From assembly GCA_963707955.1 (NCBI GenBank), contig OY970176.1:800001-864000 (forward strand): a stretch of 64,000 nucleotides of DNA, written 5' to 3'. The stretch is from Candidatus Bathyarchaeota archaeon (GTDB lineage Archaea > Thermoproteota > Bathyarchaeia > Bathyarchaeales > Bathycorpusculaceae). Below, piece after piece: positions 18,011 through 62,019 of the stretch. The notes under the pieces were generated by a model. The model worked only from the letters and a program-made list of their open reading frames with translations, was not told where the DNA came from and searched no databases. The stretch's first letter is position 1; each line of letters opens with the position of its first letter. The position numbers and the translations under genes were made by a program.

Positions 18011-18420
18011 CTTTAGCGCGCGGTTATTGAAGTTTTGCGCCACACTTTGGGCACTTAAGAGGATAGTTTTCTTTGCTTATCATTTTCAATCCACAGCCGA
18101 AGCAGATACAAATCTTGCACGTTGGGCAATAGTAGTTGCCGCCTTGAATGCGAGTGCCGCACATGCTGCAAAGCTTGGTTAAGCAGTCATCAGGCATTTG
18201 TTACGCCCGGTGAAAGCAAGATTGGCTATATTGAAGAACGCATGGCTTGAAGGTTAAAGGCGGTTCGTTGATGCAACATTCTTGAGAAATGGTGAGAGTA
18301 GAGTAAAAGTGAACTACTTTCTAACTTGAATGAGTTTGTCTCTGACCGCCTCTGCGCGCGCTTGAGATTAAGATTCGGAATTCACAACCATATTATGTGT
18401 GTGGTCAGTAAACGCTAGGC

Positions 18421-19419: not shown

Positions 19420-19663
19420 ACTTGGCATGAGTGTAGAAGACTACAGAAGGAAACTTTCAAGCGCGTCCTAATGGATTCGTCGTTCACGCGCGCGCTCGCA
19501 ATGGGCTCGACCATTGAGCAGTCCTATGGAGAATTGAGAAAACCAAGTATATAATATAGAATTGGTTTGCCCTGTTTTCCATAGGACAGTCTAAGCAGGC
19601 TAAGACGTTGATGCAAGGGCGTGTGCAAGAGAGCAAAATCGTTGCGTTCGCTCAGCGAGCGAT

Positions 19664-19777
19664 TTAGTATTCTTCCCTCTTCCAGATGTTGTACGGGCAC
19701 TGTCTCCAGCAGTACGTGCTGCCCTTGTAAATGCAACCCTGACATTCAAGTCTGTCAAACCGCCTACGCCTGCTCAT
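19664..19777 (-). CDS. 37-aa Cys-rich micro-protein
   Basis: MSRRRRFDRLECQGCIYKGSTYCWRQCPYNIWKREEY has CxxC-x7-CxxxCP. Confidence 0.5.
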   Translation of the reverse strand: MSRRRRFDRLECQGCIYKGSTYCWRQCPYNIWKREEY

Positions 19778-19932
19778 AAACAGACTCTCAATACCCTAAT
19801 GAACTTCTTTCTCATTAAGGCTTAGATTTTGTCGGAGCGTGTAGTCCTGGCGCGCGCTCTGAATGGGAACGAAAACAACGGCGTAACTCATTTATTTCTC
19901 ATCACGCTTTTAACCCTTTTACTATTCGCGCG

Positions 19933-20424
19933 CTAGCTCCTTAACATTGCAGTTTGAGCGCCAGATTTTTCGATAGCCAAGACTAAGGCATACCCTATAA
20001 TGTTCATTGAGATTATTGAACCCAACAGGACTCCAATGAACCCTACCTCCAAAGGAACGCCGAAAAGCAAGGCCAAATAGGAACCAACGATGCCTGAGAC
20101 TATTATGTTCTGCGCAACTGTAGCAGCAAACCGAGAACCAGCGAAGTTTCTGGAGGCAATTCTCCAGCCGACGTACGCAGCAAGGAAGTTTGCTATTGAG
20201 CCTCCAATGATGTCGATGTAGCCTAGCCCGCCATATATATTTGCTACAATGTTCCCTAACGTCACTCCCAAGACTACGGGCATTCCGAACACAATGGATA
20301 GGGGGATCAAAGCATCTGCAACTCTCACCTGAAACAGCAGAAAACTTATGGGAGCAAGGAGAATGACACCGGCGGCATACAAAGCAGCGATGACACATCC
20401 TAATGTTATCTTTCTAGTTTCCAA
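19933..20424 (-). CDS. queT: QueT family transporter (ECF S-component)
   Basis: IAALYA, PISF..FQVRVADAL, GVTLGNIVAN, DIIGGS motifs. Confidence 0.88.
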   Translation of the reverse strand: METRKITLGCVIAALYAAGVILLAPISFLLFQVRVADALIPLSIVFGMPVVLGVTLGNIVANIYGGLGYIDIIGGSIANFLAAYVGWRIASRNFAGSRFAATVAQNIIVSGIVGSYLALLFGVPLEVGFIGVLLGSIISMNIIGYALVLAIEKSGAQTAMLRS

Positions 20425-20492
20425 TCTACCACCTCCCGACCGGGGTTTCTAAAGCGGAACGTTGGGAGGCCCCACCACCCGCTAAATAGGGC
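20425..20492 (-). promoter_or_regulatory. Structured 5' leader of queT (candidate riboswitch)
   Basis: Stem AGCGGG/UCCGCU whose loop holds GGGG and CCUCCC, complementary to downstream CCCC and the SD GGGAGG; TATA-like TTTATTTG at about 20508-20515. Confidence 0.55.
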
Positions 20493-20528
20493 ATTTTCAG
20501 TCTTCTACAAATAAAGCTTTGGCAGTCA

Positions 20529-20936
20529 TTACCTTACTTTGCTAAGCGAATCTATGAGTTCATCCATACTTTTGCAGATTTTAATCAGCGCAACTTCCAA
20601 CATAAGATTCACCTCTTCCATTTCTGAAAAGGTGCGGTAATCCGTCTTAAGCCCAACAATAGGCTTGCCCAACGCCGTGGCATAGCCCATTTCATATGCC
20701 ACACCCGCGTCGACTTCCACGCCGTCTAGGACTGCTGCTATCGCGTCGCTTGCCTTCAAGGCCGAGATGTCACCTTCGTAGATCCTCTTCTTCTCTTTGT
20801 GAGTGCCCTGCTGAATGAAGGGAGCTTCTTGGGCAAGCCAGACCTCAAACCCATTTTCTCTCAGTCTCTTGGCTATTTTGGAATTGAACTCTCGCTCAGC
20901 CTCGCTAAACAATGGTGCAGCAAGAAAAACTTTCAT
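20529..20936 (-). CDS. Nucleoside 2-deoxyribosyltransferase family protein
   Basis: VFLAAPLF, D.GVAYEMGYA.ALGKP, DYR, NLM motifs. Confidence 0.9.
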   Translation of the reverse strand: MKVFLAAPLFSEAEREFNSKIAKRLRENGFEVWLAQEAPFIQQGTHKEKKRIYEGDISALKASDAIAAVLDGVEVDAGVAYEMGYATALGKPIVGLKTDYRTFSEMEEVNLMLEVALIKICKSMDELIDSLSKVR

Positions 20937-21065
20937 TTCTACAAGTCACCTCACTCTACATGCGTAGCAATGTACCTACGTACATAAGGATATAATGCAC
21001 GCGCTTTCAGCGATTAGAGAGACTGTTGCCGTTGTTCATTATAGTTGGGGCAAGGCGCGCGCGCT

Positions 21066-21945
21066 CTATTTCGTAAGAATGGGTTTAGCGATGTTTTCCA
21101 CGACTAAACGAGCCATCTTATCAATGTTGCTGAGGGTATCTGCTCCTAAGGATGCAAAGCTCTTCGGAATCATGTCAAGCAACCGCGTAGAATATTCTGT
21201 AGGAAGGTAGGAAAGGCTCTCAGCCAGAAGCCTCTTCATCTTCCCACATAATCTTTTATCAGACAGAAGAGGAGCGGCGCAGCCTGCGGGTTTTAGGCAC
21301 GAAACTAAGCAAAGAATCTCGGCGAGTGGTTTCTCTCTTGACACTTCCCACGAACGTTCGTCGCTTTCAGTAACTGTGAGCAAGTGCTTTGTAAAGGCTA
21401 ATTGGTCTTCAACGTAGCCTCGCCCGTAAAGGAGACGAGAGACCTCATAATCTTTCACCGCTATGGATATCAGGTAAAACAGGTTGGTTGCATATTGTCT
21501 TGAAACGTTGAAACGGCCAATAAAGTCTAAGAGTGGGAGTGGAAGCGGTAGAAGATAGTAGCTTGGGCTGCCGTGCAAAACTGAATGCCCAACCTCGTGT
21601 CGGATTCCTCCCACTTGAACCAGCTTCGGCAGCTTCCATTCTTTCGAGGCAGAGAATGATGCGGGAAATGCCTCTATAAGCGTCATGCATAGCAAAAAAC
21701 AGCTCGTCAAAGGATGACGAACTGACTCCAACTTCCTTAGATTCTTTTGCAGTGAAAGCCTCCATTGATGAGGAATACTTAAAAATGTATAAGTCTACTA
21801 GGGCAACCTCATGGGGCTCAAGTCTACTGTAGCATTCCTTCATGACCTTAATGATGTAATCTGCTTCTTCATCCTTGATGTTGCCAAACTTTGACATAAC
21901 GATTCTCGGGTCTTTCACAGTATTGGTTATATCACGATAAGCCAT
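21066..21945 (-). pseudogene. Hypothetical HExxH protein split by frameshift near 21640
   Basis: ORF 21445..21945 reads to CLERM, and ORF 21066..21731 continues KLPKLVQVGGIRHEVGH; could be an assembly indel. Confidence 0.6.
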
Positions 21946-22067
21946 TTATGTTCCATCCGTGAATCTTCGTTGAATCTTTCTAGATACAGTGATAGTCAAA
22001 TCTATTCCAGATTTCAAACTCTTTTATAGATCTCGGCTCTCAGCTGTGATTAAAGTCTGGTGGTAAA

Positions 22068-22205
22068 ATGGTTAGAATACTGGGCATTGTTGGAAGCCCG
22101 AGGAAGGGTGGAAACACTGAGACTGCGGTAAGAGAGGCTTTGACGGCGGCTGAGCGTGAAGGAGCCGAAACAGAACTTTTGCAGCTTGTTGATTTTTGCC
22201 TTTGA
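22068..22205 (+). pseudogene. Truncated flavodoxin-like / iron-sulfur flavoprotein N-terminus
   Basis: [40 protein letters not shown], then a stop. Confidence 0.75.
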
Positions 22206-22462
22206 TTGGTCTCTGCATCGATCGATCTGTTTTTTCTTCTGCTTTTTTTCTGCAGACTTCAGCGGGAGTTTTCCTTCAAAACCAATGTCTTTCTCTCCTT
22301 TCCCTCTGTATGTGCTCGTGTGCGCCTGCGTGCGCTAGTGAGGCTTACAAGGCTAACCTGGCTAATCAGGCTTATACAGCGCGCGCACGAAGAAAAAATA
22401 GGGAAAATTATGTGTATAACCATTCCCTCAATCAATAATGACTCAACAATTTAGTAATAGAG

Positions 22463-22543
22463 TTACTTCTTTTCCTCTGGCTTTTTCTCTGCGGGTTTCT
22501 TTTCCTCTTTTTTCTCTTCTTTCTTCTTTCGCTTCAAGGGCAC
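22463..22543 (-). CDS. 26-aa Lys/Glu-rich micro-protein
   Basis: MPLKRKKKEEKKEEKKPAEKKPEEKK; GGGGGGTGA SD upstream of GTG. Confidence 0.5.
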   Translation of the reverse strand: MPLKRKKKEEKKEEKKPAEKKPEEKK

Positions 22544-22682
22544 GTCAATCACCCCCCGCTTATTCCTTTGATGCTTTCTTAAAAGGCCTTGGTTAGGAGA
22601 GCGCGCGTGGATTTTTCAGGAATCTCTCCTCTCTTAGTGCGCGCGAGCTGAAGGAGATACTCCTGAAAAGCATGCGCAGCTC

Positions 22683-22820
22683 CTAAACCTTCTTTCCATA
22701 TTCACGGAACTTTTTCCCGCAACACTCGTACTGCTTAACATGTATCTTTTTGTTCCTGCCCATATTCCACTCCTTTATCGGCGTTTCAACTTCTTTTCCA
22801 CAGGTCGGACACTTGGCCAT
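22683..22820 (-). CDS. 45-aa Cren7-like / Zn-ribbon small basic protein
   Basis: MAKCPTCGKEVETPIKEWNMGRNKKIHVKQYECCGKKFREYGKKV; GGAGGTGA SD; P.K.W...GK.FR pattern resembles Cren7. Confidence 0.7.
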   Translation of the reverse strand: MAKCPTCGKEVETPIKEWNMGRNKKIHVKQYECCGKKFREYGKKV

Positions 22821-22892
22821 TTGTCTGTCACCTCCTTCAAAGGTTTTAAGATTAAAAAACAGGGTATTAAAAACAAGGCGTTATTTCCGCGT

Positions 22893-22997
22893 CTATAGGG
22901 CTCCGTAGAGCTTGGTTCCACACCTAATGCCCCATTCTTCTTCTTCCTCTGGTTCCTCTTCCTCTTCTTCTCCCTCTTCTTCTTCCTCTTCGCTCAT
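22893..22997 (-). CDS. 34-aa poly-Glu micro-protein
   Basis: MSEEEEEEGEEEEEEPEEEEEWGIRCGTKLYGAL; mixed GAA/GAG codons keep the frame. Confidence 0.5.
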   Translation of the reverse strand: MSEEEEEEGEEEEEEPEEEEEWGIRCGTKLYGAL

Positions 22998-23247
22998 AGC
23001 GTTGTGTCCCAAAATTAGCGCCCTTAGGTCAAGGCTATAGCGCTGTTAATAAGCGTGTTGATAGTCAAGCACGCTCCTTAAAAATACTATATACGAGGAT
23101 GCATAGCGCGCGCTAGCTTGTCCCTAAATTAGTTAATGCTTATTTTGGTACGTGGGGTCTCGTATTTTGTGGCTTACGTCCAAGCCTAGGAGGTGACGCG
23201 CGCGCCCTACCAATCTTCTTCCTCTAGTTAAAACTATAAGCCCACTT

Positions 23248-23844
23248 TTAAATGGCGTTCTTATATCCTTTCGCCACCAACCTTTTGTGGATGGAGTTCT
23301 TCAAAGCGCCCAATCCTGCTCCTGTCTTTGCGCTCACTGGGAATACGTGCTCTCCAACAGCAAATGGATAACCCTTGCCTATTTGATGTATGAACGCTTC
23401 ACTGTTGACCTTTAACTCCTCCTTATTCACCTTATCTATCTTGTTAGCCGCCACCAAAGGAAACTCACCTGAAGTCTCCGTCAAAAACTGAACCATCTCC
23501 ACGTCCACTGAGATAAAACCCTTCTTCTCCAAACGCCACGTTACCTCCGAGAACGTGGATATGTCTAAAACATGGACGGCCAAAGCTATGTTCTGAGCAT
23601 AGGACTCCAGAAACTCGATGATCTGATCATTTTTCTTATCCTCCAAACGTTTGGAAGCTCTCATCATCCTACCAAACCCTGGCATATCTACAAGCACCAA
23701 ATCGCCACTCAAGGGATATTTTGAAATCCGTCGCGTAGTTCCTGGACGTTTACCGACTGCCACATCCAAGCCTACGACTTCTCTGATGATGCTACTCTTG
23801 CCCGCATTAGGCCTTCCAGTGAAAACCAAATACCTCTCACGCAT
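23248..23844 (-). CDS. engB: GTP-binding protein EngB
   Basis: GRPNAGKSS, PGTT, DMPGFG, NKID, SAK. Confidence 0.9.
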   Translation of the reverse strand: MRERYLVFTGRPNAGKSSIIREVVGLDVAVGKRPGTTRRISKYPLSGDLVLVDMPGFGRMMRASKRLEDKKNDQIIEFLESYAQNIALAVHVLDISTFSEVTWRLEKKGFISVDVEMVQFLTETSGEFPLVAANKIDKVNKEELKVNSEAFIHQIGKGYPFAVGEHVFPVSAKTGAGLGALKNSIHKRLVAKGYKNAI

Positions 23845-24167
23845 ACTGAATATTACATAAGACGCAGTATACTTGAATGTATCCTAGCCCACAATTTCCG
23901 AGTTACAAAAACTACGGCAAACAGTTTGGTCTTTCTTTAACACAGCTCCATCTCAAGGTCTTTAATGAACGCTATGCAGTCTTTTCTTGGAATACTTGCT
24001 CCCCCTAGTATTTTTCTGTGCTTCAAACAGTCTCCCTGTCGAAGTTTAAAAGTCCGCAGAGAGCGCGCGCTATTTTTGCAGCAAGGAAACTAATCACCGA
24101 TGATGAGCCAGAACCTGACCCATCGGAAGGTTTATCCAAGTGTACAATGTAACCACCAGAGGTCTTA

Positions 24168-24914
24168 ATGCAGATACAAGAGATGCAAATTGAAGTCAAT
24201 AAGTTTTTAGAGTCTTTGAATGTTGACATGCGAGTTATCATTGTTACCAATTGTCGGGACGACATAGCAAAGGCTATCGGACTATATATTAACGACACGA
24301 TTCCTGTCGTGAATCTGAAAGTCAACGTAGCTTTCGGAAACGTGTCCGTAAACAAGGATTATTTGAACAGAACTCTAACCTACGATGAACAAAGGTTCAT
24401 GTTGGCACATGAAACTTCCCACATCTATCTTAATCATGTTGTACCTCGCGCTATTGATGGATTCATCGATGAACTCATAAGAAACTGCAACCGCGATGTT
24501 CACGCCTTTCTAAATGGGGCAAAAGTGTTTTTGTATCTACTCAATATCCCTCTCCCTTTGTCTGTCATCGCTAAAGAGCAAGAAATAGCTGCCGATGTCA
24601 GAGCAATATCTCTAACAGGAAATGAGAATGCTGCTATCAGTTGTTTAACCAAACTTGTCAATGGAAATCTAGATGACACCTCCCATACTTGGGAAGCACT
24701 CGGTGTCAAAATGCCCGTCATGACTATGAAAGAACGTATCCAAGAGATACAGCGAAGATTATCCAGTCTATGTCAATATGGCTCCAAACCATCTTCATGT
24801 CTGAAATCATCCGAAATTTCACAGGGAAAACCATTCGACGCAGACTTCACAGAACCTCAAAAAGCAATACCGCAAAAAATCAAATCATCACCCGACTTGC
24901 ACCACGAAGACTAA
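24168..24914 (+). CDS. M48-like zinc metallopeptidase
   Basis: LAHETSH and EIAAD motifs. Confidence 0.7.
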   Translation: MQIQEMQIEVNKFLESLNVDMRVIIVTNCRDDIAKAIGLYINDTIPVVNLKVNVAFGNVSVNKDYLNRTLTYDEQRFMLAHETSHIYLNHVVPRAIDGFIDELIRNCNRDVHAFLNGAKVFLYLLNIPLPLSVIAKEQEIAADVRAISLTGNENAAISCLTKLVNGNLDDTSHTWEALGVKMPVMTMKERIQEIQRRLSSLCQYGSKPSSCLKSSEISQGKPFDADFTEPQKAIPQKIKSSPDLHHED

Positions 24915-25154
24915 TCACCCGACGATAGACCAGAACCCAGAGCGCGCGCTAAGTTCGCTCAGTCTTCAACGCTCCACTGAATATATTTCTGATAGAAGCA
25001 CTAATCCTTTCTCCAAATATAAGTAGAGGACCATTAAAGTGACCCTGAAACTTAGCGCACGCTATCATTTGTAACAACTACTCGCGCTTTTGGAATGACC
25101 AGTGATGAGAGTTGAGTGTGCGAGGTGTGAAATTGGTCGAGCTGAAAAGAGCGT

Positions 25155-25412
25155 TTAAGTGCTAGTGACTATTTCTGCTCCTGCGGCTACAGGTCCTGGT
25201 GTCGTGATTTTGATTCTTAAATGGTCTCCGAGCTTTGCGTTACCAATGAAAACTGGGAAACCGTTGATTCTGGCTATGCCTTCCCCTTGAGGGCTTGTTT
25301 CGGTTATATCCACTTCGTATTCTTTTCCAGTCTCAACTGGGCAGTTTTCAATGCCTCTGCCACGTTTGCTCTTGGCATTTCTCGGGCTTCTTTTTCGCGG
25401 ACTCATCGGCAT
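25155..25412 (-). CDS. Single TRAM domain protein
   Basis: CPVETGKEYEVDI..S.QGEGIARINGF. Confidence 0.88.
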   Translation of the reverse strand: MPMSPRKRSPRNAKSKRGRGIENCPVETGKEYEVDITETSPQGEGIARINGFPVFIGNAKLGDHLRIKITTPGPVAAGAEIVTST

Positions 25413-25668
25413 CTTCCTTTTTCTGCTTTTTTGATGATGTGATTATCGTCCCTCAGTGGCTTAAGTGTTCCGCATTTTACTGCTCGCGCTAACCCAATTG
25501 AAAGTGCGATAATCTATAGCCGCGCGCGCTACCTCTTTGTTGTCTCAAAACCCGAAACAAGCAAAGTCTGCCTATTTCTAACCTCTTAGTTCTCTCAAGA
25601 CTCTTTGCTATGGCAGTCTGAGCCCCATGGGTTTCATATAATAGGAATGGAAGAACAATAGTCGGAGT

Positions 25669-26256
25669 GTGGTTGCCGTGTCAGATGATGATTGGTCTGT
25701 AGCAGTTTTCAAATGTGCACCAGAGAATGTCAGAAGCGTTCTTCTTGAATTCTATGGTTTTTTGGTAGACCTTGTAGGGGTTAAGAATCTTCACTTTTTG
25801 GTCAGAGATCGCGTTGAAGACGAGGTTGTTGTCAGTTTTCGCGTGTTGACAGAAAAGAAGTACCACGAAGTTGTTAAGAGCAAGATGAACTACAAACTCG
25901 GAATTCTTGTTCCCGACAAGTTCGCAGTCAATCCTGACTCACAGAACCCGTTGAACAAATACGTTGCTTGGGGCGCCGAAAAAAGAATATCCAAATCGGG
26001 TCTTGACAAGTTTCCAGAATTCTGTAATCTTCTCAGCAAGATGAGTGGTTTGGTCATAGAGATGCTGAAGAACGACTATTTCGGTTCCACTGAGAGAGTT
26101 GAAATTGCTCATGTGATGTCTTGGATGCTTGGTTGTACTGAGTACGGGAAGATGAGCCCAACTCACTGGGAACTTGGGTATTATGACCGCATAGAAGACA
26201 AGTGTCGTCCATACCTGAGACAAAACTTTCCACAGACCCAGAAATCTGAAACATAG
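25669..26256 (+). CDS. Hypothetical protein
   Basis: 195-aa ORF with TATA (ATATATAA) upstream; no family recognised. Confidence 0.6.
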   Translation: MVAVSDDDWSVAVFKCAPENVRSVLLEFYGFLVDLVGVKNLHFLVRDRVEDEVVVSFRVLTEKKYHEVVKSKMNYKLGILVPDKFAVNPDSQNPLNKYVAWGAEKRISKSGLDKFPEFCNLLSKMSGLVIEMLKNDYFGSTERVEIAHVMSWMLGCTEYGKMSPTHWELGYYDRIEDKCRPYLRQNFPQTQKSET

Positions 26257-26927
26257 CTTCTTGGACAATTGTGCGACGGCTCAGGATTCCAGCATTTTTT
26301 ACCCCTTTTTTCAGCTTTAATGAGGCCAGAAGTTCCGTAGAAGAGCACTATGCGAGGCTGATGCAGATCAATTTGCTTATCCAAGAATTTGTTTTTTATT
26401 TTTTGGCAATTATCCCAGACCTTTTTTCCATCGGCACCCATAACAAAGCCCATCCATGCCTTTCTTGTCGGACACTTTATAGCGTCTACAAAGCAAACAT
26501 CACCTGAACTAAAAGAGATGGGTTGACCTTCCACTTTCATTCCTTCAAGTAGTTTGACGAAGACGAGAAAGTAAGGATGCCACCTGCTTTTGGGTTCCCT
26601 AAAGTAGTTGCATTGTAAACGGAAAATCTCTTCAATATCGCTGTCTTTGAGTAGACTCCGGCTCGTTGCTCCGAACTTATCTAAAGATAGGCCAACGAGC
26701 GCATCTGCCCTGTCTGACCCATCAGGGTTAGTTGCAACCACCCAGATTTTCGCCTTTATAACATCACCAAAATTCCCAACAGGAATTGTTATGGGTAAAT
26801 ATTCGGTTGATGAAAGATTGCCTTTACCATTAACAAAATAATAGACTCCATCTGGGTCTCTGATCTTGCGACAATCTTCGCATTTGTAAATCTGAGAGTA
26901 TAACTCAATTGGAAATTGTCCATCCAA
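26181..26927 (-). CDS. Uracil-DNA glycosylase-like fold protein
   Basis: CxxC, VATNP, DAIKCPT, QIDLHQPRIVLFYG resemble the UDG superfamily; C-terminus overlaps the convergent gene and may be truncated. Confidence 0.5.
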   Translation of the reverse strand: MDGQFPIELYSQIYKCEDCRKIRDPDGVYYFVNGKGNLSSTEYLPITIPVGNFGDVIKAKIWVVATNPDGSDRADALVGLSLDKFGATSRSLLKDSDIEEIFRLQCNYFREPKSRWHPYFLVFVKLLEGMKVEGQPISFSSGDVCFVDAIKCPTRKAWMGFVMGADGKKVWDNCQKIKNKFLDKQIDLHQPRIVLFYGTSGLIKAEKRGKKCWNPEPSHNCPRSYVSDFWVCGKFCLRYGRHLSSMRS

Positions 26928-27162
26928 GTTACCACATCCGTCAGCCTTTTACCGTGAGATTTCTTTAATACCATCGAAATGCTATTCAGGTTTTTGGTTG
27001 TTGTCAAGTTCCTGAGGGGTTTTAGCGCGCGCAAGGCCTAATCCCTCCTTTTTTTGCGTCTTGGATGTATTGGAAGTGGTTGGATTTACCGTTGGGTTTT
27101 TATTAAAAATAGAACAACTACATTACCCACTGCTGTTGACGCCATCTGTGAAGGGAAAAACG

Positions 27163-28675: not shown

Positions 28676-28676
28676 C

Positions 28677-47224: not shown

Positions 47225-48073
47225 ATGCTAAAAGACAACAAGAGCGACTACACAATTAACTTCACAAGAAAAGCCCTAACATTCCTAAGCCAGCACACAA
47301 ACCTAGCAGAACCAGAGGCAGTAAAGCTGTTCATAGCAACGCACAAAGCCTCCGACGGATACAAACGGAACCTCTGCATAGCTTACAACAAGTACTGCAA
47401 GTTCTACAACATCAATTGGAATATGCCCAAGTACCGAGAAGAAGCTAAGAACATCGCCCTACCCACCAAAGAAAAAATACAAATGCTCATCGCAAGCGCA
47501 GGCAGACTTCTCTCAATGAAACTACAGCTGAGCATGGAAACAGGACTCAGGCCCGTAGAAATTGCAAGACTCAAAGTCAAAGACATAGACCTAGAACACA
47601 GAACTGCAAATCCGATAACAGCCAAGAGAGGCAACCCAAGAACCGTACCAATGTCACAGGGCTTAACACTGAAAATCCAAGAATACATAACAGCGAAGAA
47701 CCTTACACCATCCGACTTATTGTTCAAAGGACAAGACTCGGACCACTACGGCAAACACTACCGCATAATGCGGAACGAATTAGCTGAAAAACTCAAGGAC
47801 CCATCAATCCGAACAATACGACTATACGACCTCAGACACTACTTCTGCACAAAGAAACTAAACGACATCGGAAACCCCTACACTGTAATGGTTCTAATGG
47901 GACACACAAAACTAACAACGACCCAACGATACATGCACCTACTCAACTTCAACGACGACGAATGGACATGCACAGGAGCAACGACAGCCAAAGAAGCAAC
48001 CAAACTCATAGAAAACGGATTCCAATACGTAACAACAATCGAAGGAATACAACTATTCAAAAAACGAAAATAA
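47225..48073 (+). CDS. Tyrosine integrase (C-terminal part; frame open back through the att)
   Basis: TGLRPVE, AKRG, YDLRH, MGH, TTQRY catalytic motifs. Confidence 0.93.
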   Translation: MLKDNKSDYTINFTRKALTFLSQHTNLAEPEAVKLFIATHKASDGYKRNLCIAYNKYCKFYNINWNMPKYREEAKNIALPTKEKIQMLIASAGRLLSMKLQLSMETGLRPVEIARLKVKDIDLEHRTANPITAKRGNPRTVPMSQGLTLKIQEYITAKNLTPSDLLFKGQDSDHYGKHYRIMRNELAEKLKDPSIRTIRLYDLRHYFCTKKLNDIGNPYTVMVLMGHTKLTTTQRYMHLLNFNDDEWTCTGATTAKEATKLIENGFQYVTTIEGIQLFKKRK

Positions 48074-51649: not shown

Positions 51650-52264
51650 ATGGATAGAAAAGTGAACAAATACTTTGTTACAATTCCCATATTCGACTCG
51701 CAAACGGCAAAGCTACTTGCACCAGAGACAAACTGGAAAATCCTAGAAGCCCTGAGAGATGTTGGAATGGAAGGTTTGTCGGCTGAAGAAATCTCGGAAA
51801 AAATCAAAGTGCCGATATCTTCTGTCTACAACATCTTGAGAACTTTGGAAGCAACTGGTTGGGTACAGAGCACTATGAAACGACCGCCTTGGGGTCGCCC
51901 CTCAAAGAAAATTAAACAACGCTTTGGCGGAAAACCGACAAGAGTTTTCATAGAAACCGTTCCGTGGGGTTTGAATGAACTTGATTATGATTTTATTGAT
52001 AGCCTTATTCCCGTTCTGAAAGATATGAAAAACAACGTGGATGAGCTCAGGGAAAAATGGTTGTCAATTTTGGAAAAGATAGTTTTGACGTACCAAGCAA
52101 ACAACCTGAAGAAATTCTTTCCCCAAGAACCGATAGACAGTGAATGCGGACATAGTCGCGAAGGATTAGAGTTCCTCCGCGCCATCAGCACTGAATTAGT
52201 TTGGGAAATATTGAATGGCAAAGACTTCGATGCGCTGGCAAGAAAACACAAATTCATGAAGTAA
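51650..52264 (+). CDS. Winged-HTH (ArsR/TrmB-like) regulator
   Basis: WKILEAL...SAEEISEKIKVPISSVYNILRTLEATGWV; divergent from rep. Confidence 0.8.
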   Translation: MDRKVNKYFVTIPIFDSQTAKLLAPETNWKILEALRDVGMEGLSAEEISEKIKVPISSVYNILRTLEATGWVQSTMKRPPWGRPSKKIKQRFGGKPTRVFIETVPWGLNELDYDFIDSLIPVLKDMKNNVDELREKWLSILEKIVLTYQANNLKKFFPQEPIDSECGHSREGLEFLRAISTELVWEILNGKDFDALARKHKFMK

Positions 52265-53338: not shown

Positions 53339-54286
53339 ATGACGTACAGAAACACCTCAATCAGACCCGTAATAACACCAACCACACTCGAAAAACAATT
53401 AATCCCTAACAATACATCAATCCTGAACGTACTAATTCAAATGAAAAACGACAACAAGAGCGACTACACAATAAACTTCACCAGAAAAGCACTGAACCTC
53501 CTGGCAAAACATACGAGCCTCGCGGAACCTGAAGCAGTGAAGCACTTCATAGCACAACACCGAGTGTCAGACGGATACAAAAGAAACCTCTGCATAGCTT
53601 ACAACAAATACTGCAAATACTACAAAATAGAATGGCAAATGCCACAGTATCTCGAAGAAGCCAAGAATATCAAACTACCAACAAGAGAAAAACTACTCAT
53701 GTTAGTAGCCAAAACCAAAGTCCCATTGTCAATCAAACTGAGGCTGAGTATGGAAACAGGATTACGGCCCGTCGAACTATGCAGACTAAGAGTTAACGAC
53801 TTGGATTTAGACCACAGAACAGTCAACCCAACAACCGCCAAGAAAGGTAATCCGAGAACACTGCCAATTTCGCAATCACTCACAGAATCATTAATTGAAT
53901 GGATAGGCAAGAAACGACTAAAACCAACCGACAAAATATTCAAAGGAAAAGCCGACGATTACGGCAAACACTATCGAATCATGCGAAACAAACTTGCAGA
54001 AGACATTAAAGACCCATCAATACGCATGATCAGGCTATACGACTTCAGACACTATTTTTGCACCAAGAAACTAAACGACATCGGAAATCCTTACACTGTA
54101 ATGGTCTTGATGGGACACAAAAAACTTGAAACCACGCAAAGATACATGCCCCTACTGAATCTAAACGACGATGAATGGACATGCACAGGAGCAACAACTG
54201 CGCAAGAAGCTATGAAACTAATAGAAGCAGGCTATCAATATGTCACAACAATCGAAGGAATACAGCTGTTCAAAAGAAGAAAATAG
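53339..54286 (+). CDS. Tyrosine integrase (paralog of 47225..48073)
   Basis: TGLRPVE, AKKG, YDFRH, MGH, TTQRY; GAGGTGA SD. Confidence 0.93.
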   Translation: MTYRNTSIRPVITPTTLEKQLIPNNTSILNVLIQMKNDNKSDYTINFTRKALNLLAKHTSLAEPEAVKHFIAQHRVSDGYKRNLCIAYNKYCKYYKIEWQMPQYLEEAKNIKLPTREKLLMLVAKTKVPLSIKLRLSMETGLRPVELCRLRVNDLDLDHRTVNPTTAKKGNPRTLPISQSLTESLIEWIGKKRLKPTDKIFKGKADDYGKHYRIMRNKLAEDIKDPSIRMIRLYDFRHYFCTKKLNDIGNPYTVMVLMGHKKLETTQRYMPLLNLNDDEWTCTGATTAQEAMKLIEAGYQYVTTIEGIQLFKRRK

Positions 54287-54808: not shown

Positions 54809-54856
54809 TGGCTCGTGAGCCTTTCGGCTCACTCGCACGTTCCAGACGATTCGCCA
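54809..54856. repeat. 48-bp hairpin repeat, copy 2
   Basis: One substitution relative to copy 1. Confidence 0.9.
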
Positions 54857-56502: not shown

Positions 56503-56739
56503 TTTTTCACCATCGCGAGTCGATCGATGGCTTCTAACTGATACAAAACTTTACCTTATTTACTTTCCTCACTCAACATACACCTGTTCTGACGATCATA
56601 AAGCAGATTTCATTTCCTAGCGCGCGCGCAATTGCTATAGCGTACGTATAAGAAAAGTTAAGAATAAGTTAAGAATCACTCCGCGCGCAGAATATCCTAC
56701 CAACAGCTTGACCGCGATAGTAGCGCGCTCGCTCGCTCG

Positions 56740-56764
56740 CTCGCACGTTCCAGACGATACGCCA
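56740..56764. repeat. 48-bp repeat, truncated copy 3
   Basis: CTCGCACGTTCCAGACGATACGCCA preceded by TAGCGCG and a (CTCG)n stutter. Confidence 0.8.
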
Positions 56765-56856
56765 AAACAGACATTCTCAATTAATTCGCGTTTTTCAAAT
56801 TATACAAAAAGTCTTTTATTCGAGACTACTCGTAACCTTCAAACTGAGGACCGATA

Positions 56857-57330
56857 ATGAAAACTCTGGTACTTTATTACACCCGAACTGGAAACACGAA
56901 ATTCGTCGCCGAAACTATTGCGGCAGAACTTGGAGCTGACATGGAAGAAGTCATAGACTTGAAGAAACGCCAAGGCACACTCGGCTGGCTATCAGCTGGC
57001 AGAGACGCCATGGGTGCAAAAGAAACCGAAATTGCCCAAACAAAAAGAATTCCAACTGACTACGACCTCATAATCATCGGACAACCCGTCTGGGCTCGAA
57101 ATCCGACGCCAGCAATCAGAACATACCTGAACAAGAATGACTTGTCGGGGAAGAAAGTGGCGTTGTTCCTCTCCGATATCAATCTGGGTCAAACCGTCGA
57201 GAAGACCAAAGCGTTAATGTCGAACTCCACCTTAGTCGGCGAGTTAGTCTTATCAGCGAAAGAATTAGAGAACAAGGAAGAGACAAAAAAGAAAATCGCT
57301 GAATGGTGCAACACACTCCAAATAGTGTAA
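56857..57330 (+). CDS. Flavodoxin
   Basis: YYTRTGNT, YDLIIIGQPVW, LSGKKVALF. Confidence 0.9.
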   Translation: MKTLVLYYTRTGNTKFVAETIAAELGADMEEVIDLKKRQGTLGWLSAGRDAMGAKETEIAQTKRIPTDYDLIIIGQPVWARNPTPAIRTYLNKNDLSGKKVALFLSDINLGQTVEKTKALMSNSTLVGELVLSAKELENKEETKKKIAEWCNTLQIV

Positions 57331-57408
57331 TATGCTCAGTGCGCGCGCGCTCAAAAAACCGACACAGATCGCTCGATAAAACTCTAGCTCCACACACTGA
57401 AACTACTG

Positions 57409-57912
57409 TCAGATTATCTCTTTTGCCATGGTTATTCGTTCTGGTTTGTATCCAGTTCTGCTGTAAAGCTTTATTGCAGAGTCATTTGTCGCTGATACCG
57501 AAAGAGCAATTCTGGAATGCCCCTTCCTTCTACAATAATCTTCCGCCTTTTCCAAAAGCAACTTCCCGATTCCCTTGCCTCTGAATTCCTCTTCAACAAA
57601 AATGTCATAAATATAACCGAAGGTCAGCTTAGTAATCTGGCCTCTGATTTGTCCAACGATCAAGTGTCCAACGTACTTATGATGTTCATCCTCTGCGACA
57701 AAGACCTCGGTATTTTCTTCCTTCAAGATATTCTCATAATCTTCAATCACATTCATGTTCCATTTCTCTCTATCGAGAAGCTTTTTCTGCGTTTCAGGGA
57801 TGTATTCCCACGAGTTTTCAACAAACATTTTCTTCACTAAGGATATGTCAGTTGCTTTTGCTTTCCTTAATTGAATGTTCATCAACATCATCCTTTTCGC
57901 GCCAGATGTCAA
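57409..57912 (-). CDS. GNAT acetyltransferase (copy 1)
   Basis: FRGKGIGK.LL, N.SAIKLY..GY; near-identical to 59940..60431. Confidence 0.9.
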   Translation of the reverse strand: MTSGAKRMMLMNIQLRKAKATDISLVKKMFVENSWEYIPETQKKLLDREKWNMNVIEDYENILKEENTEVFVAEDEHHKYVGHLIVGQIRGQITKLTFGYIYDIFVEEEFRGKGIGKLLLEKAEDYCRRKGHSRIALSVSATNDSAIKLYSRTGYKPERITMAKEII

Positions 57913-57953
57913 GTTCGATTCAAGTCTCCTTTAATATTTTGTGTAGCGCGCGT

Positions 57954-58043
57954 GACAGCGAAAGAAGCAACCAAACTTGTAGAAGCAGGATTCCAACACG
58001 TCACAACAATCGAAGGAATACAACTATTCAAAAACGCAAGTAA
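57954..58043 (+). pseudogene. Integrase 3' fragment
   Basis: TAKEATKLVEAGFQHVTTIEGIQLFK matches the C-terminal tail of both integrases. Confidence 0.85.
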
Positions 58044-58115
58044 CCAACAACCTCCCTCCTTTTTTAATGTGGAAAACATATTTACTCATGAGAGTAGCGT
58101 GCGCGGGTAATACTC

Positions 58116-58565
58116 ATGAATGAGGATGATTTGTCATTCCAAATATGCAAGCTGCCTGAAGATTCCAAGTCTGTAGAAGAAGGCTTTCGAACAATTCGAG
58201 ACGGTCTCAGGAGAAATATTACTGACAAAACCAGCAACGTCGAACCACCAAGAACAATCGCGATATTGATCCGAGACAAAAGGAACTGCATCGTGGGAGG
58301 AGTAATAGGTTATGCCATGGGAGGATGGCTACTTGTCGATCTTCTATGGGTCGAGGAATCACTCAGGAACAAGGGCTACGGCACCAAACTTCTCAAAATG
58401 GTTGAAAACGAAGCAGCAAAGCTCGGATGCAAATACGCTCACCTAGAAACTTTCAGCTTTGAAGCACGACCATTCTACGAGAAGCACGGCTACACACTTT
58501 TTGCAACGCTTGGCAATTACCCAGAAGGGCACAGTAAACATTTCCTAAAGAAAAAACTGGCATGA
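58116..58565 (+). CDS. GNAT acetyltransferase
   Basis: LWV...RNKGYG, TFSFEARPFYEKHGY. Confidence 0.9.
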   Translation: MNEDDLSFQICKLPEDSKSVEEGFRTIRDGLRRNITDKTSNVEPPRTIAILIRDKRNCIVGGVIGYAMGGWLLVDLLWVEESLRNKGYGTKLLKMVENEAAKLGCKYAHLETFSFEARPFYEKHGYTLFATLGNYPEGHSKHFLKKKLA

Positions 58566-58596
58566 GAGTGCACTTGTTCTATATACTGTCGATCGA

Positions 58597-58644
58597 TAGC
58601 TCGTGAGCCTTCCGGCTCACTCGAACGTTCCAGACGATACGCCA
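58597..58644. repeat. 48-bp hairpin repeat, copy 4
   Basis: Loop TTCC instead of TTTC; stem intact. Confidence 0.88.
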
Positions 58645-58765
58645 AAGCCAAAACACAAAGCGCGCGCTTGAAGCACCAAGATCCAAAACCTGTAAGCGGA
58701 GCCTCTTCTAGAATTCGAAAATTATTAAAGCACTATTACGCATATCATACCTTCTGGGAACATAA

Positions 58766-58858
58766 ATGCCGAAAAAAGAAAAACCGTTAACTAAGAAAGA
58801 GCGAGACGAGAAAAGGAAGAAACATAAGGAAAAGCAAAGCAAAACACAGACTTCTTAA
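58766..58858 (+). CDS. 30-aa basic micro-protein
   Basis: MPKKEKPLTKKERDEKRKKHKEKQSKTQTS; TATA-like TTATTAAA upstream. Confidence 0.45.
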   Translation: MPKKEKPLTKKERDEKRKKHKEKQSKTQTS

Positions 58859-59230
58859 GCCCCAAGAAAGAACTTTGCAAAACTCTTTTTCTCTTTTTAC
58901 CATAAAGTTGGCTTCTTTAATGAAATGAAAGAAAGACGCGTCAGCTTTGGATATTATTGGCTTCCTCCATTAATGCGAAAGAAATATGTTTTAGCTTGTT
59001 TATTTATCGTTAATTTGTAGCTGAGATTTATGCCGAGTGTAATGAAACGTAAACAAAAGAATACTCAAATCGCACAACAGAAAAAGATAGAACGGGATAA
59101 AGAAGCGAAAAAGAAACAGTTGAGACAGCAACTTCCTGCCAAGGGCAAGAAACGTTAAAGCCACTAAAGGAGCTATGGTAACCATCTAGAGCGCGCGCCT
59201 AGAAGACAACAATACAGCGCGCGCTGCTTA

Positions 59231-59752
59231 TCATCCGAACAGGTCCAAGAAGGGGGTAAGCAAATGTTTCGTAACGAAGTTTTCATTCACCAACTCGCCA
59301 TCTTCAGCATTTAGACCGTTACAGGAAGGAATTAGCTTAAGCGTGAAGGAGTTCGGACTGACTCTCTCAAAGTCGAACGGGTACAATCTGCAGCGAGCTG
59401 GCCTAGAATTGTAAATCGGACACTCGTAAGACCCTCTCCTTGGACTGGATTTTAGGAGAATACACCATCCATCTTTGTTGTTTTTCAAGTTTCCAACCAT
59501 CATAGGCAAGCGCTTGAACTTCGGATCCACTGTTGTCTCCAAAAAGTCTTCCAATCTGTGTCCCGTTTTTTTTGCCCGCTCCATATCGCTCTTGATGAGT
59601 ATTGGTCCCCCAAGTTTGCAGCAGAAGACTGCACATCGTTTACACCTGAAACGAAGATCATCATGATAAAAAGTCATCCTCAAAATTCGTTTAGCTTTGG
59701 GATCCAAGATGACTTCTGCAATGTTTTCGTTCAAGTTCTTGCCCTTGCCCAA
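59231..59752 (-). CDS. YkgJ family Cys-cluster protein
   Basis: CKRCAVFCC, C..L, CPIY..RP..CRLYPF. Confidence 0.88.
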   Translation of the reverse strand: MGKGKNLNENIAEVILDPKAKRILRMTFYHDDLRFRCKRCAVFCCKLGGPILIKSDMERAKKTGHRLEDFLETTVDPKFKRLPMMVGNLKNNKDGWCILLKSSPRRGSYECPIYNSRPARCRLYPFDFERVSPNSFTLKLIPSCNGLNAEDGELVNENFVTKHLLTPFLDLFG

Positions 59753-59835
59753 ACAGCTCGCTTTTTGGAGTGTTTAAAGCTTATGTTCTAGCGGGCGCAA
59801 ATAACGACAATCCTTTTTTCCCACAAAAACCATCT

Positions 59836-59880
59836 TGGCTCGTGAGCCTTTCGGCTCACTCGCACGTTCCAGACGATACG
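59836..59880. repeat. 48-bp hairpin repeat, copy 5
   Basis: Identical to copy 1 over 45 nt. Confidence 0.9.
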
Positions 59881-59939
59881 TTCAAAGAACCGACACAGAT
59901 CGCTCGATAAAACTCTAGCTCCACACACTGAAACTACTG

Positions 59940-60431
59940 TCAGATTATCTCTTTTGCCATGGTTATTCGTTCTGGTTTGTATCCAGTTCTGCTGTAAAGC
60001 TTTATTGCGGAGTCATTTGTCGCTGATACCGAAAGAGCAATTCTGGAATGCCCCTTCCTTCTACAATAATCTTCCGCCTTTTCCAAAAGCAACTTTCCGA
60101 CTCCCTTGCCTCTGAATTCCTCTTCAACAAATATATCGAAAACATAACCGAAGTTCAGCCCAGTAATCTGGCCTCTGGTTTGTCCAACGATCAAGTGTCC
60201 AACATACTTATGGTGTTCATCCTCTGCGATAAAGACCTCACTATTTTCTTCCTTCAAGATATTCTCATAATCCTCAATCACATGCATATTCCATTTCTCT
60301 CTATCGAGAAGCTTCTTCTGCGTTTCAGGGATATATTCCCACCCTGTTTCAACAGCCATTTTCTTCACTAATGGCATGTCAGTTGCTTTTGCTTTCCTTA
60401 AGTGAATGTTCATCATCATCATCATCATCAC
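59940..60431 (-). CDS. GNAT acetyltransferase (copy 2)
   Basis: Duplicate of 57409..57912; begins GTG(ATG)6. Confidence 0.9.
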   Translation of the reverse strand: MMMMMMMNIHLRKAKATDMPLVKKMAVETGWEYIPETQKKLLDREKWNMHVIEDYENILKEENSEVFIAEDEHHKYVGHLIVGQTRGQITGLNFGYVFDIFVEEEFRGKGVGKLLLEKAEDYCRRKGHSRIALSVSATNDSAIKLYSRTGYKPERITMAKEII

Positions 60432-60548
60432 CTTTTCGCGCCAGATGTCAAGTTTGATTCAAGTCTCCTTTAATATTTTGTGTAGCGCGCGAAACATCAA
60501 ACGCTGAAAACTAAAATAATAAAAAAATGGAAACTAACCGCGCGCGCG

Positions 60549-60591
60549 AACAACAATCGAAGGAATACAACTATTCAGAAAACGCAAATAG
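60549..60591 (+). pseudogene. Integrase 3' fragment
   Basis: TTIEGIQLFRKRK-stop followed by the same CCCC-TTTT terminator-like tract seen after the intact integrases. Confidence 0.8.
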
Positions 60592-60645
60592 CCACAACCC
60601 CCATTTTTTTATTTCGAAATAGAAGGAAAGAAACTGCCTGAGAAA

Positions 60646-61005
60646 TTGAGACTGTTGAAATTTGACGAAAAAGAATACTACAGCAGACTATCTGAAAAGC
60701 AACTAGAGGAAGCGATAGAAAAAGACTTGAACACCGTTTTGACCCAGAACCTGTTTGAGCTAAAAACATTCATCAATTACGATCTAAAACTAGGCAAGCA
60801 TGAAAATGATGCTGTATTCTGGAATTTTGTTGGAAACCCCCTTTATAGAATGCTTGAAAAAAGCATTGTAGAGAACTGCCGCAATAGTGAAAGATACAGA
60901 AAGAAGCTCATTTATAGAATGGATAACCTCATAAATGAACTTAGACCAGACTGGGCGCTTTTCATGGAAAGAGAAGAAAGAAGAAAGAAGCAACCCAAGA
61001 AATAG
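60646..61005 (+). CDS. Hypothetical protein
   Basis: 119-aa ORF directly after the integrase remnant. Confidence 0.55.
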   Translation: MRLLKFDEKEYYSRLSEKQLEEAIEKDLNTVLTQNLFELKTFINYDLKLGKHENDAVFWNFVGNPLYRMLEKSIVENCRNSERYRKKLIYRMDNLINELRPDWALFMEREERRKKQPKK

Positions 61006-61081
61006 TCTTTCAAGAAATCGTATTCTTCCTCAAGATAGCATCAAAAATTTTACCGTACAGTTTTGTCAGTAACGCGCGCGC

Positions 61082-61133
61082 GAATGGCAAAGACTTCGAT
61101 GAACTGGCAAGAAGACACAAATTCATGAAGTAA
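61082..61133 (+). pseudogene. 3' fragment of the wHTH regulator
   Basis: NGKDFDELARRHKFMK-stop versus NGKDFDALARKHKFMK-stop at the end of 51650..52264. Confidence 0.85.
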
Positions 61134-61149
61134 GCCCGTAGCGGGCGCG

Positions 61150-62019
61150 CTAGATCGCAACCGTTGCCGAGTAAATTTCAGATGCTATTTCGATTGCTTT
61201 TTCCCACTCTCTCTTTCTGAGGTTCTCCACCGCTTCTGTTACCAGTGCACATGTCTTCTTGCGTATATCGTCATTGCTTGTTCTTCTTTCCACAACATTG
61301 CGGGCAATGCATACAGATTCAATTGCTACTTTCGCCAAGACAAACTTGTCGATGTCATATCTTTCAGATACCACCGCGCTCAGATTGAAATCTGATAGAT
61401 GCCTTTTGATTCGAGGAATTCCAGATGCCAAAACGTAAGCAAAGACAACAACAAGAATATAGTAAGCTGCAACTACCAAGGAATTCTGCAAAAGAGTAAG
61501 TGTGGGAATTGCTGATACATTCGGAAATCCCTGAGCAGAATAGAGCCAAATTCCGTAAACAATAGGCACGAAGACTCCGACTACGCATGAGAAAATTCCG
61601 ACACCGCGCGCATTTATCAGATTTATCAATCGCCAACTATAGTCAATTAACCCTTGATCCCCACTTTCATTCACAAAGAGGTTTATTATGTGCACACTAG
61701 ATGTGTTCTTCTTCACATCCTCTGCCATTTGCTGATTCATCTTCTTCGTGTGCGAATCTACAAACTCAGCCACTAGTTCTACGCACTGGTCGCGTACTCC
61801 CAGCCTCCCTTTCTGTGCCCAAATCTTGCCGTATATTGTTCTAACGTACCCTTGATAGATAACAAAGCCAACAGGTATCACAGACGCAATTATGAAGGTT
61901 ATCGCCCGAGTGTCGAACGTACTGGTTTTTCCGACCATTATTAAAAACAACAGAATAAAAAAGAAGGCAAAAAAACCTGGAATGGAATAATACAGCAAAG
62001 TCTCGTTCTCAGTCTTCAC
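61150..62019 (-). CDS. Hypothetical multi-TM protein
   Basis: Four hydrophobic segments, YSIPG motif; stop TAG runs into CGCGC. Confidence 0.7.
   Translation of the reverse strand: MKTENETLLYYSIPGFFAFFFILLFLIMVGKTSTFDTRAITFIIASVIPVGFVIYQGYVRTIYGKIWAQKGRLGVRDQCVELVAEFVDSHTKKMNQQMAEDVKKNTSSVHIINLFVNESGDQGLIDYSWRLINLINARGVGIFSCVVGVFVPIVYGIWLYSAQGFPNVSAIPTLTLLQNSLVVAAYYILVVVFAYVLASGIPRIKRHLSDFNLSAVVSERYDIDKFVLAKVAIESVCIARNVVERRTSNDDIRKKTCALVTEAVENLRKREWEKAIEIASEIYSATVAI

Follow-up and report, generated by a model that had tools for sequence, protein, structure and literature searches.

Alternating-GC palindromes at the joints of gene fragments and cassettes in a Bathyarchaeia genome

Why should short alternating-GC stretches lie exactly where genes have been cut short, when the intact copies of the same genes carry none at those positions? 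The question is raised by a 64,000-nucleotide stretch of archaeal DNA (the window; G000:C1:800001-864000, with the prefix w marking window coordinates) from a single-contig Bathyarchaeia genome, G000, of 2.35 Mb and 47.9% G+C. The PheRS gene of this genome has its nearest named records among Bathyarchaeia metagenome-assembled genomes. We call an alternating-GC stretch a run and apply thresholds of either at least 6 nt or at least 7 nt. A first-pass annotation of the window had suggested that in every junction one of the two partners can do without a site, and that (GC)n arises at the joint. The analysis described below showed that runs border captured gene fragments and entire cassettes. The location of the runs, their novelty at some deletion joints and their lineage specificity are what the data show; that they are scars of DNA joining is our favored reading, and the chemistry of tailing and annealing that might write them, and the enzyme, are what we infer.

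Fragment ends and GC runs in the window

The junctions that the first-pass annotation had read by internal comparison were recovered by alignment. BLAST homology of a first integrase tail to the 3′ ends of two intact integrase genes (w47983-48090 and w54197-54275) begins at w57954, 2 nt past the run at 57946-57952, and that of a second tail begins at w60549, 1 nt past the run at 60539-60548. The homology of a winged helix-turn-helix (wHTH) gene tail to w52213-52264 begins at w61082/61083, at the end of the run at 61073-61082. Alignments confirmed that runs are missing at the matching positions of the intact integrases and of the wHTH gene. The two copies of a duplicated segment carrying a GNAT gene (w57348-58066 and w59879-60611, 89% identical) both have TAGCGCGCG at the right end and then diverge, again as first described; past TAGCGCGCG, copy 2 continues with an unrelated 47-nt spacer, a second run and a shorter tail, and the copies re-converge over about the last 60 nt of the integrase tail. 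No second copy of the spacer (w60492-60538) was found in the genome. At the left ends, GNAT copy 1 adjoins the run at 57341-57350 and copy 2 adjoins a 48-bp repeat, a third copy of which (w56735-56766) is cut on its 5′ side by TAGCGCGC and then a (GCTC)4 stutter. Within w56600-61200, 30 of 4601 positions lie within 2 nt after the end of a run, and all three fragment starts there (3/3) occupy such positions (p ~3e-7 even at the local run density). The features concerned are the following (coordinates, strand where one is assigned, description).

47225..48073, +: intact integrase 1, serving as reference allele; run-free at the truncation points, with a run past the gene at 48120-48127
51650..52264, +: intact wHTH (TrmB/IclR-like) gene with which the tail at 61083 is compared
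53339..54286, +: intact integrase 2 (reference allele); no runs at the truncation points
56722..56766, +: TAGCGCGC and (GCTC)4 stutter cutting copy 3 of the 48-bp att-like repeat; homology from 56735
57341..57350: GC run GCGCGCGCGC at the left edge of the first GNAT copy
57409..57912, −: GNAT acetyltransferase gene, copy 1, in the duplicated segment w57348-58066
57946..57952: GC run (TAGCGCGCGT) separating GNAT copy 1 from integrase tail 1
57954..58066, +: integrase tail 1, comprising roughly the final 100 nt of the integrase gene and a T-rich downstream stretch; a degenerate run, GCGTGCGCG, lies about 20 nt past it
59940..60431, −: GNAT gene, copy 2, in the duplicated segment w59879-60611
60485..60548: run GCGCGCG, 47-nt spacer and run CGCGCGCGCG, standing for about 60 nt of the integrase tail in comparison with copy 1
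60549..60611, +: integrase tail 2, comprising roughly the final 42 nt of the gene and downstream sequence
61073..61082: GC run CGCGCGCGCG at the start of the wHTH tail
61083..61150, +: wHTH tail, which retains the final 51 nt of a copy of gene 51650-52264; a fragment with runs on both sides, the right-hand one a 6-nt run at 61145-61150

The first-pass annotation had asked for support of these joints by reads, and this was obtained in part. Logan contigs from two sequencing runs of one study, which may include the source sample, bridge w60462-61200 (junctions 60485-60548 and 61073-61082) without differences, whereas the junction at 57946-57954 is bridged solely by the contig of a diverged strain; stretches without contig cover in sequencing runs X2, X5 and X8 were left out of the reading. 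Strains in two other studies have different joints at the same runs. In the strain of another metagenome, GCGCGCG stands where G000 has w58903-58964; another metagenome joint has AGCGCGCGCT between its two sides, and contigs of other strains join 57344/57346 to 59846/59850. An assembly artefact is ruled out because the motif recurs in metagenome-assembled genomes assembled by many groups. The relative G001 carries the GT4 gene of this locus (w54811-56633) at 99% identity, the match ending 4 nt past the run at 56620-56629, and a small-ORF (open reading frame) module (w58715-59173) at 98% identity; the two are separated there by another cassette, about 900 nt long, and runs mark all of the boundaries.

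Runs at repeat ends and deletion joints across the genome

The motif is not confined to this locus. GCGCGCG has 99 matches in the window against 5 expected, and G000 as a whole has 1151 runs of at least 6 nt, 641 of them of at least 7 nt. Runs of 6, 7, 8, 9, 10 and 11 nt number 510, 186, 267, 130, 56 and 2, respectively, and none is longer; a microsatellite growing by slippage was rejected on this account, as it should show a decaying tail of longer arrays, whereas here the lengths stop at 10-11 nt. Sixty-eight percent of the runs of at least 7 nt (437/641) lie in the 14.6% of the genome outside ORFs, as judged from a heuristic map of greedy longest ORFs that counts 85.4% as "coding". The commonest intergenic form is GCGCGCGC, which has 186 copies where CGCGCGCG has 22; in 72% of cases A precedes it (-1, 5′ side) and T follows it (+1, 3′ side), and TA is a frequent flank. 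No conserved sequence was detected beyond the adjoining base: A makes up 58-72% next to the run and positions -2 to -14 are at background, and runs of at least 7 nt have no enriched flank word. The flanks are independent of each other (complementary pairs, 0.53 observed and 0.56 expected), and a mirrored extension resembling P nucleotides was rejected on that ground. Runs are spread among intergenic regions roughly by region length and are unclustered, as would be expected from random writing followed by selection. Regions with at least two runs number 97 against 91 expected, and pairs are no closer than random, a result that disposes of the notion that new runs arise beside old ones.

The association also holds in a genome-wide catalogue of fragment ends of the kind that the first-pass annotation had called for. 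Self-BLAST of the genome gave 2235 non-self matches with 3070 distinct ends, and run occupancy was raised about 4-fold within 10 nt of an end and was near zero 15-50 nt inside the matches. Runs were present at 105 of 1282 non-ORF repeat ends (2.6% in the null, p=2e-24) and at 45 of 1788 ORF repeat ends (0.2% in the null), ends that are not independent of one another owing to repeat families. There are 326 segments of 25-400 nt with runs on both sides, of which 105 are copied elsewhere in the genome, 34 of these matching from run to run; about a dozen of the 34 are copies of miniature inverted-repeat transposable elements (MITEs). Several run-bounded segments are pieces of long ORFs, namely a Cas1 piece, the wHTH tail and ORF 3′ ends.

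G000 was compared with 778 kb of G001 (93.3% identity to G000) and 790 kb of G007 (91.7%). Of the 224 runs of at least 7 nt comparable with G007, 154 fall in DNA that does not align, 28 fall where an alignment breaks off and 42 fall inside blocks. The 137 that are intergenic divide into 102 in strain-specific DNA, 21 at breaks and 14 inside blocks, while random intergenic positions fall there in 49%, 3.9% and 47% of cases. Within aligned blocks runs alter by ordinary substitutions, and few of the gaps there are simply short insertions of a run (4 of 87 gaps of at least 4 nt). When collinear indel and replacement events were collected, a run of at least 6 nt lay within 12 nt of any of the four ends in 18 of 53 events with G001 and 35 of 106 with G007; the total, 53/159, compares with 14% expected for four random intergenic ends (p=1.5e-9). 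Ninety-one runs could be placed in all three genomes, with 37 common to the three, 23 found in a pair of genomes and 31 in a single genome, and many of the 31 are 7-mers produced by one substitution in conserved sequence.

These comparisons bear on whether the runs could be an ordinary intergenic signal (a terminator, an insulator, a binding site or a Z-DNA element) that lies near fragments by coincidence. The concentration of runs outside ORFs would suit such a signal, as would a mild excess in the 0-40 nt past stop codons (52 runs, against 20 before starts). There is, however, no preference for gene starts or gene ends that would amount to a positional rule (median distance, 158 vs 163 nt), on which ground a promoter or terminator role was rejected, and runs are depleted from conserved intergenic DNA, with 14/137 in blocks aligned to G007 where 47% would be expected. 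Their turnover is fast, 37 of the 91 placeable runs being common to three genomes that are 92-93% identical; they meet the ends of homology exactly; and most relatives carrying the same genes lack the motif. We therefore consider a signal of this kind very unlikely.

That runs appear at joints is indicated by five clean deletions of about 0.3-5.6 kb, each found in one genome only and each with a run at the joint. In every case the other two genomes have the long allele, without a run at either endpoint.

G000 1768846: deletion of about 1 kb
G001 C2:65894: 302 nt replaced by exactly AGCGCGCGCT; no run within the 302 nt
G001 C1:214342: deletion of about 4 kb
G007 76454: deletion of 1.1 kb
G007 324825: deletion of 2.4-5.6 kb

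After subtraction of the G/C bases already in the flanks, the filler at these five joints measures 5-10 nt. At G000 1550192-1550270, a run, about 60 nt and a second run stand in place of about 85 nt. With the five deletions, the inference that one partner needs no site and that (GC)n appears at the joint gains support from run-less long alleles in outgroups, beyond that given by paralogues alone.

Origin of the runs: writing at joints and its alternatives

We tentatively favor the explanation that DNA capture, or end joining that does not depend on Ku, involves the writing of a GC palindrome. At a break, at a deletion or on capture of a loose fragment, the joint would often receive a short, self-complementary alternating-GC stretch; the filler would be 5-10 nt long and the usual product A-GCGCGCGC-T. 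Both DNA ends would gain a short GC extension, and the extensions could pair with each other because (GC)n is its own complement, after which the paired joint would be filled and sealed. Recurrent events of this kind would yield gene tails, captured fragments and whole cassettes, each bounded by runs. A run, once in place, would decay through point mutation, and it would also be a favored landing site of a family of elements with terminal inverted repeats (TIRs), MITEs included.

The distribution of the motif was examined in the genus and its order, and in 151 Bathyarchaeia genomes drawn evenly across the class. GCGCGCGC is abundant in 10/10 genomes of the genus (29-464 copies), and elsewhere in the order it has 0-14 copies, with 53 in one genome. 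In 14 of the 151 genomes, belonging to five families, AGCGCGCGCT is present in 13-131 copies against 0-5 for the reversed control; the remaining genomes have 0-9 copies, except for one G+C-rich genome with 16, where the reversed control has 14. The motif is thus all-or-none and patchy across Bathyarchaeia lineages. Recent run-bounded cassettes common to G000 and distant motif-rich genomes were not found beyond one 69%-identical match in 5 genomes, and therefore the process acts within each lineage.

Candidate enzymes were then compared with this distribution. G000 has a complete operon of bacterial type for non-homologous end joining (NHEJ) outside the window (G000 957178-960233; L160 7178-10233), which encodes a LigD_Prim-Pol protein, Ku and a ligase fused to a phosphoesterase. 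Ku was detected in 34 of the 151 genomes and 13 of 77 genera, and within the order in this genus only. The first-pass annotation had also named primase and PolX-type enzymes as possible GC writers, and neither suggestion found support: the PolX palm domain PF14792 has no match in G000 and occurs in 2/14 motif-rich genomes and in 33/33 genomes of a motif-poor family (f23), and the Prim-Pol domain PF09250 was not found in G000. A C5 methylase or restriction system was discarded, as PF00145 (C5 enzymes only) has no match in G000 and is present in 1/14 motif-rich genomes, and long ORFs do not avoid such sites (observed/expected, 1.25 for GCGCGC, 1.06 for AGCGCT, 0.90 for GCGC and 0.92 for CGCG). 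Searches of G000 for a reverse transcriptase (RVT_1), for an IS630-type DDE_3 domain and for Y1_Tnp (PF01797) gave no match, the last of these matching in 6/14 control genomes. The integrases of the window match Pfam Phage_integrase; their subfamily was rejected as the cause, being commonest in motif-poor genomes and not found in 7/7 genomes of family f25.

Several of these results count against the writing of runs at joints. Ku/LigD NHEJ is rejected as the cause, Ku being present in 3/14 motif-rich and 31/137 other genomes (Fisher p=1), and there are motif-rich genomes that are 94-100% complete yet lack Ku. No enzyme was pinned down among the families searched. The replicative primase is universal in archaea and therefore leaves the all-or-none distribution unexplained, and plain untemplated tailing does not predict a product as sequence-specific as this one, with its prevalence of GCGCGCGC over CGCGCGCG and its A/T flanks. 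An event-centered count gave 81 three-way events with 18 unique short alleles, of which 2 had a run of at least 6 nt and one more had CGCGC; writing at joints would therefore be one joining mode among several, and the inference of the first-pass annotation is incomplete in this respect as well as in that runs also serve as pre-existing TIR targets. Runs stood at the ends of 7 of the 29 unique long alleles. At four loci among these 29 a run-bearing short allele is present in two genomes and a run-less long allele in the third, and these are not polarizable; they could instead be insertions that consumed a run. Polarization was based on three genomes (G000, G001 and G007) with no rooted tree, a limit under which recombination between lineages might mislead.

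A defined sequence together with a patchy distribution argues for a specific factor, and this keeps alive the alternative that the run is the site of a dedicated enzyme (a nuclease or a recombinase) or a minimal mobile palindrome made from two abutted ends, the 10-bp AGCGCGCGCT. One-ended illegitimate joins would then place a run beside sequence that never had one, and cassettes would move between runs. One could envisage such a site from the fixed phase and flank of the motif (A at -1 and T at +1 in 72%), and an all-or-none spread over five families is what a horizontally moving gene would produce. Insertions at G000 1559002-1560753, 1252997-1254253 and 1448448 are flanked by runs on both sides where the empty site is a single run, run-to-run modules reappear in other contexts in G001 and G007, and the four loci with a run-bearing short allele in two genomes fit as well. 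In contrast, G001 C2:65894 has just the 10-mer in place of 302 run-less nucleotides, so that a donor end would need trimming to the exact motif. Nothing is conserved past the A/T flank, hence an ordinary recombinase site is not indicated; the lack of site avoidance in long ORFs (0.9-1.25) and of a C5 methylase in G000 argues against a restriction-type enzyme; and the window integrases do not follow the motif. On balance we regard this alternative as unlikely.

It is possible, if doubtful, that some lineages write a self-complementary tag, (A)GCGCGCGC(T), on broken ends so that any two ends can pair, and that they do so by means of a patchily inherited enzyme. Such tag writing might, with the same reservation, stitch deletions and take up both gene fragments and whole cassettes, and would be a sequence-writing form of repair or acquisition for which no counterpart is known.

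The TIR elements that land on runs could also be their source. The family is flanked by GCGCGC and has a TIR of approximately T(A/G)GCNTGTYCCTAAATT, with 57 such ends in G000; it inserts into single runs and duplicates about 6 nt. Its members include MITEs of about 200 nt, each copy of which has 24-30 BLAST matches, and larger elements with cargo, one of 1.75 kb bearing a MEDS/wHTH gene and others of 2.3 kb and 3.5 kb (HEPN-MNT and PIN toxin-antitoxin genes). For the element at G000 1559002-1560753, the empty site in both relatives is one GCGCGCGC. In that element (L156), inverted repeats of 175 bp enclose a wHTH-MEDS sensor gene together with a small zinc-ribbon ORF, and a cargo element at G000 27097-30582 (L155) has MITE-like inverted ends with HEPN-MNT, PIN and MazE-PIN toxin-antitoxin genes. 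No transposase was seen inside the TIR elements examined. As a source of runs the family was rejected: it is a user of runs, only 56 of the 1151 runs of at least 6 nt adjoin a TIR, and a genome can be motif-rich without it.

More generally, GC-tipped or GC-duplicating transposons might leave GCGC+GCGC scars as footprints or targets and cause adjacent deletions that end at the element end. A real GCGCGC-flanked family with a duplication of about 6 nt exists, and two such duplications joined in differing registers would give runs of 6, 8 and 10 nt and might account for the length limit. The small share of runs next to a TIR speaks against this, as does the TIR pattern itself, which has 0 matches in 11 of the 13 other motif-rich genomes; DDE_3 and Y1 domains were not found in G000, nor a transposase in the elements examined. 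Moreover, the ancestral alleles of the five deletions hold no such element, so three events would be needed per case. Transposon footprints are accordingly an improbable origin of the motif. Apart from the TIR family, G007 has an insertion family of about 330-420 nt (G7C1:556054-556380 and 709403-709822) that terminates in ...CAAGTTAC(T/C)AGAACC. The first copy has a 3-nt duplication (CTT) and GGCGCGCGC at the other end, and a GC run is at or near that end in each copy; this is a second kind of small mobile element touching runs.

If runs are written at joints, each end-joining or DNA-capture event in these genomes has left a trace that can be read, and the traces would point to an enzyme activity, not known in any organism, by which DNA ends receive a defined palindromic tag. 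With such an activity one could explain how single-gene cassettes and gene fragments are put together into the flexible genome of an abundant, uncultured group of archaea. If the runs are instead sites of a dedicated enzyme or mobile palindromes, they would still be a new and very short recombination or mobile signal in archaea. As the motif is all-or-none, full phylogenetic profiling can find the responsible gene, which makes the question directly testable.

Known systems and further features of the window

As far as compared, the finding fails the defining features of junctional filler, of yeast GC clusters and of repetitive extragenic palindromic (REP) sequences. REP sequences and the bacterial interspersed mosaic elements (BIMEs) built on them are imperfect palindromes of 20-40 nt with a conserved flanking tetranucleotide and a Y1 (RAYT) gene, and insertion sequences target REPs. 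The runs resemble them as an abundant, lineage-specific extragenic palindrome and a landing site for insertion sequences, but they have no flank beyond A/T, and no Y1_Tnp was found in G000. Z-DNA-forming alternating CG tracts are fragile sites with breaks and large deletions, and here too alternating GC is linked to breaks and large deletions; fragility would account for loss at a tract, but not for a new tract absent in the ancestor or for the limit of 10-11 nt. As in integron arrays with their attC sites, single-gene cassettes, GNAT genes included, lie beside tyrosine recombinase genes and have palindromic boundaries. Unlike in integrons, the boundary is a perfect palindrome of 8-10 nt without the R''-L''/L'-R' structure of attC, the cassettes are in both orientations, and the integrase subfamily does not track the motif.

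End-joining filler, from bacterial Ku/LigD NHEJ or from the archaeal primase PriSL, likewise consists of extra nucleotides, present in neither partner, exactly at deletion or capture junctions, and captured pieces lie between two joints. The runs differ in having a single defined sequence, self-complementary and limited in length, where such filler is random or templated locally, in being frequent enough to form a genome-wide motif, and in not tracking with Ku across the 151 genomes. The portion of the Saccharolobus report that concerns us (PMC12019639) describes terminal transfer by PriSL and microhomology annealing at breaks, with insertions mostly of 1-2 bp; going by that portion, primase-mediated microhomology joining is the nearest precedent for a Ku-independent route. 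Yeast mitochondrial GC clusters are described, in the relevant part of PMC4478555, as recombination hotspots that accompany insertion or deletion of larger fragments. By that account the runs are like them in being short GC-rich non-coding palindromes, sporadic between strains and of fast turnover, and unlike them in size and setting, for the clusters are hairpins of 30-40 nt with a target dinucleotide in an organelle, and the runs are 8-10 nt, too short for a hairpin, on an archaeal chromosome. A narrow search by title and abstract found nothing matching on archaeal intergenic GC palindromes or on palindromic mobile elements of Bathyarchaeia, and it is because of that search only that we use the label "undescribed".

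The remaining features of the window that involve runs are the following.

6793..6875: GCGCGCGC, a 66-nt Cas1 piece (w6801-6866) and CGCGCGCGC, a second run-bounded gene fragment; the piece has 83% identity to the interior of the Cas1 fragment w62774-62838
15294..27032: defence-island-like mosaic of single genes, each bounded by runs
56620..56629: GC run GCGCGCGCGC; the end of the GT4 segment shared with G001 is 4 nt beyond
56682..56688: GC run CGCGCGC
56857..57330, +: flavodoxin-like gene, a cassette between two runs
58116..58565, +: second GNAT gene, unrelated to the duplicated one
58599..58647, +: copy 4 of the 48-bp att-like repeat; other copies at 48522-48583, 54797-54856, 56735-56766 and 59823-59887
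58660..58667: GC run AGCGCGCGCT
58715..59173, +: module of two small lysine-rich ORFs, 98% identical to G001 C13; at its left end a run directly adjoins in G001 and is 48 nt away in G000
59191..59224: two GCGCGCGC runs, 18 nt apart
59231..59752, −: CxxCxxCC-domain gene; an 88% identical paralogue lies 59 kb downstream, and a run precedes that paralogue in X1 too

The mosaic contains, among others, genes for a PLD-family nuclease, a nucleoside deoxyribosyltransferase/TIR-like protein, a small GTPase and an M48 peptidase as well as a 524-aa ORF, and its run-to-run modules are found separately and scattered in G001 and G007. The row of accessory genes at w14039-27032 also has an AAA_15/AbiEii-like ATPase and lies directly upstream of the conserved pheS; synteny with relatives ends at about w27085, 53 nt from a run. 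The two ORFs of the small module (w58767-58858, about 30 aa, and w59030-59158, about 42 aa) are rich in lysine and glutamate, and the module is 98% conserved in G001, G007, G009 and G008-type genomes.

The att-like sequence is a direct repeat of 48-58 bp with a 7-bp hairpin, in five copies (48522, 54797, 56735, which is the cut one, 58599 and 59823). Each of the first two copies lies about 430-510 nt past an intact tyrosine-recombinase gene, and the array starts just after the gene for the archaeal RNase P RNA (w46859-47165); no tRNA genes were found in the window. The repeat array (w47225-61150) looks like a stack of integrated elements with a common att site, now eroded. Finally, the four Cas1 matches in G000 (w62528-63163, and 227778-228074, 2026633-2026785 and 2258379-2259146) are all fragments or contain stop codons, and G000 seems to hold Cas1 debris only; one Cas1 pseudogene is interrupted by GCGCGCGCG.

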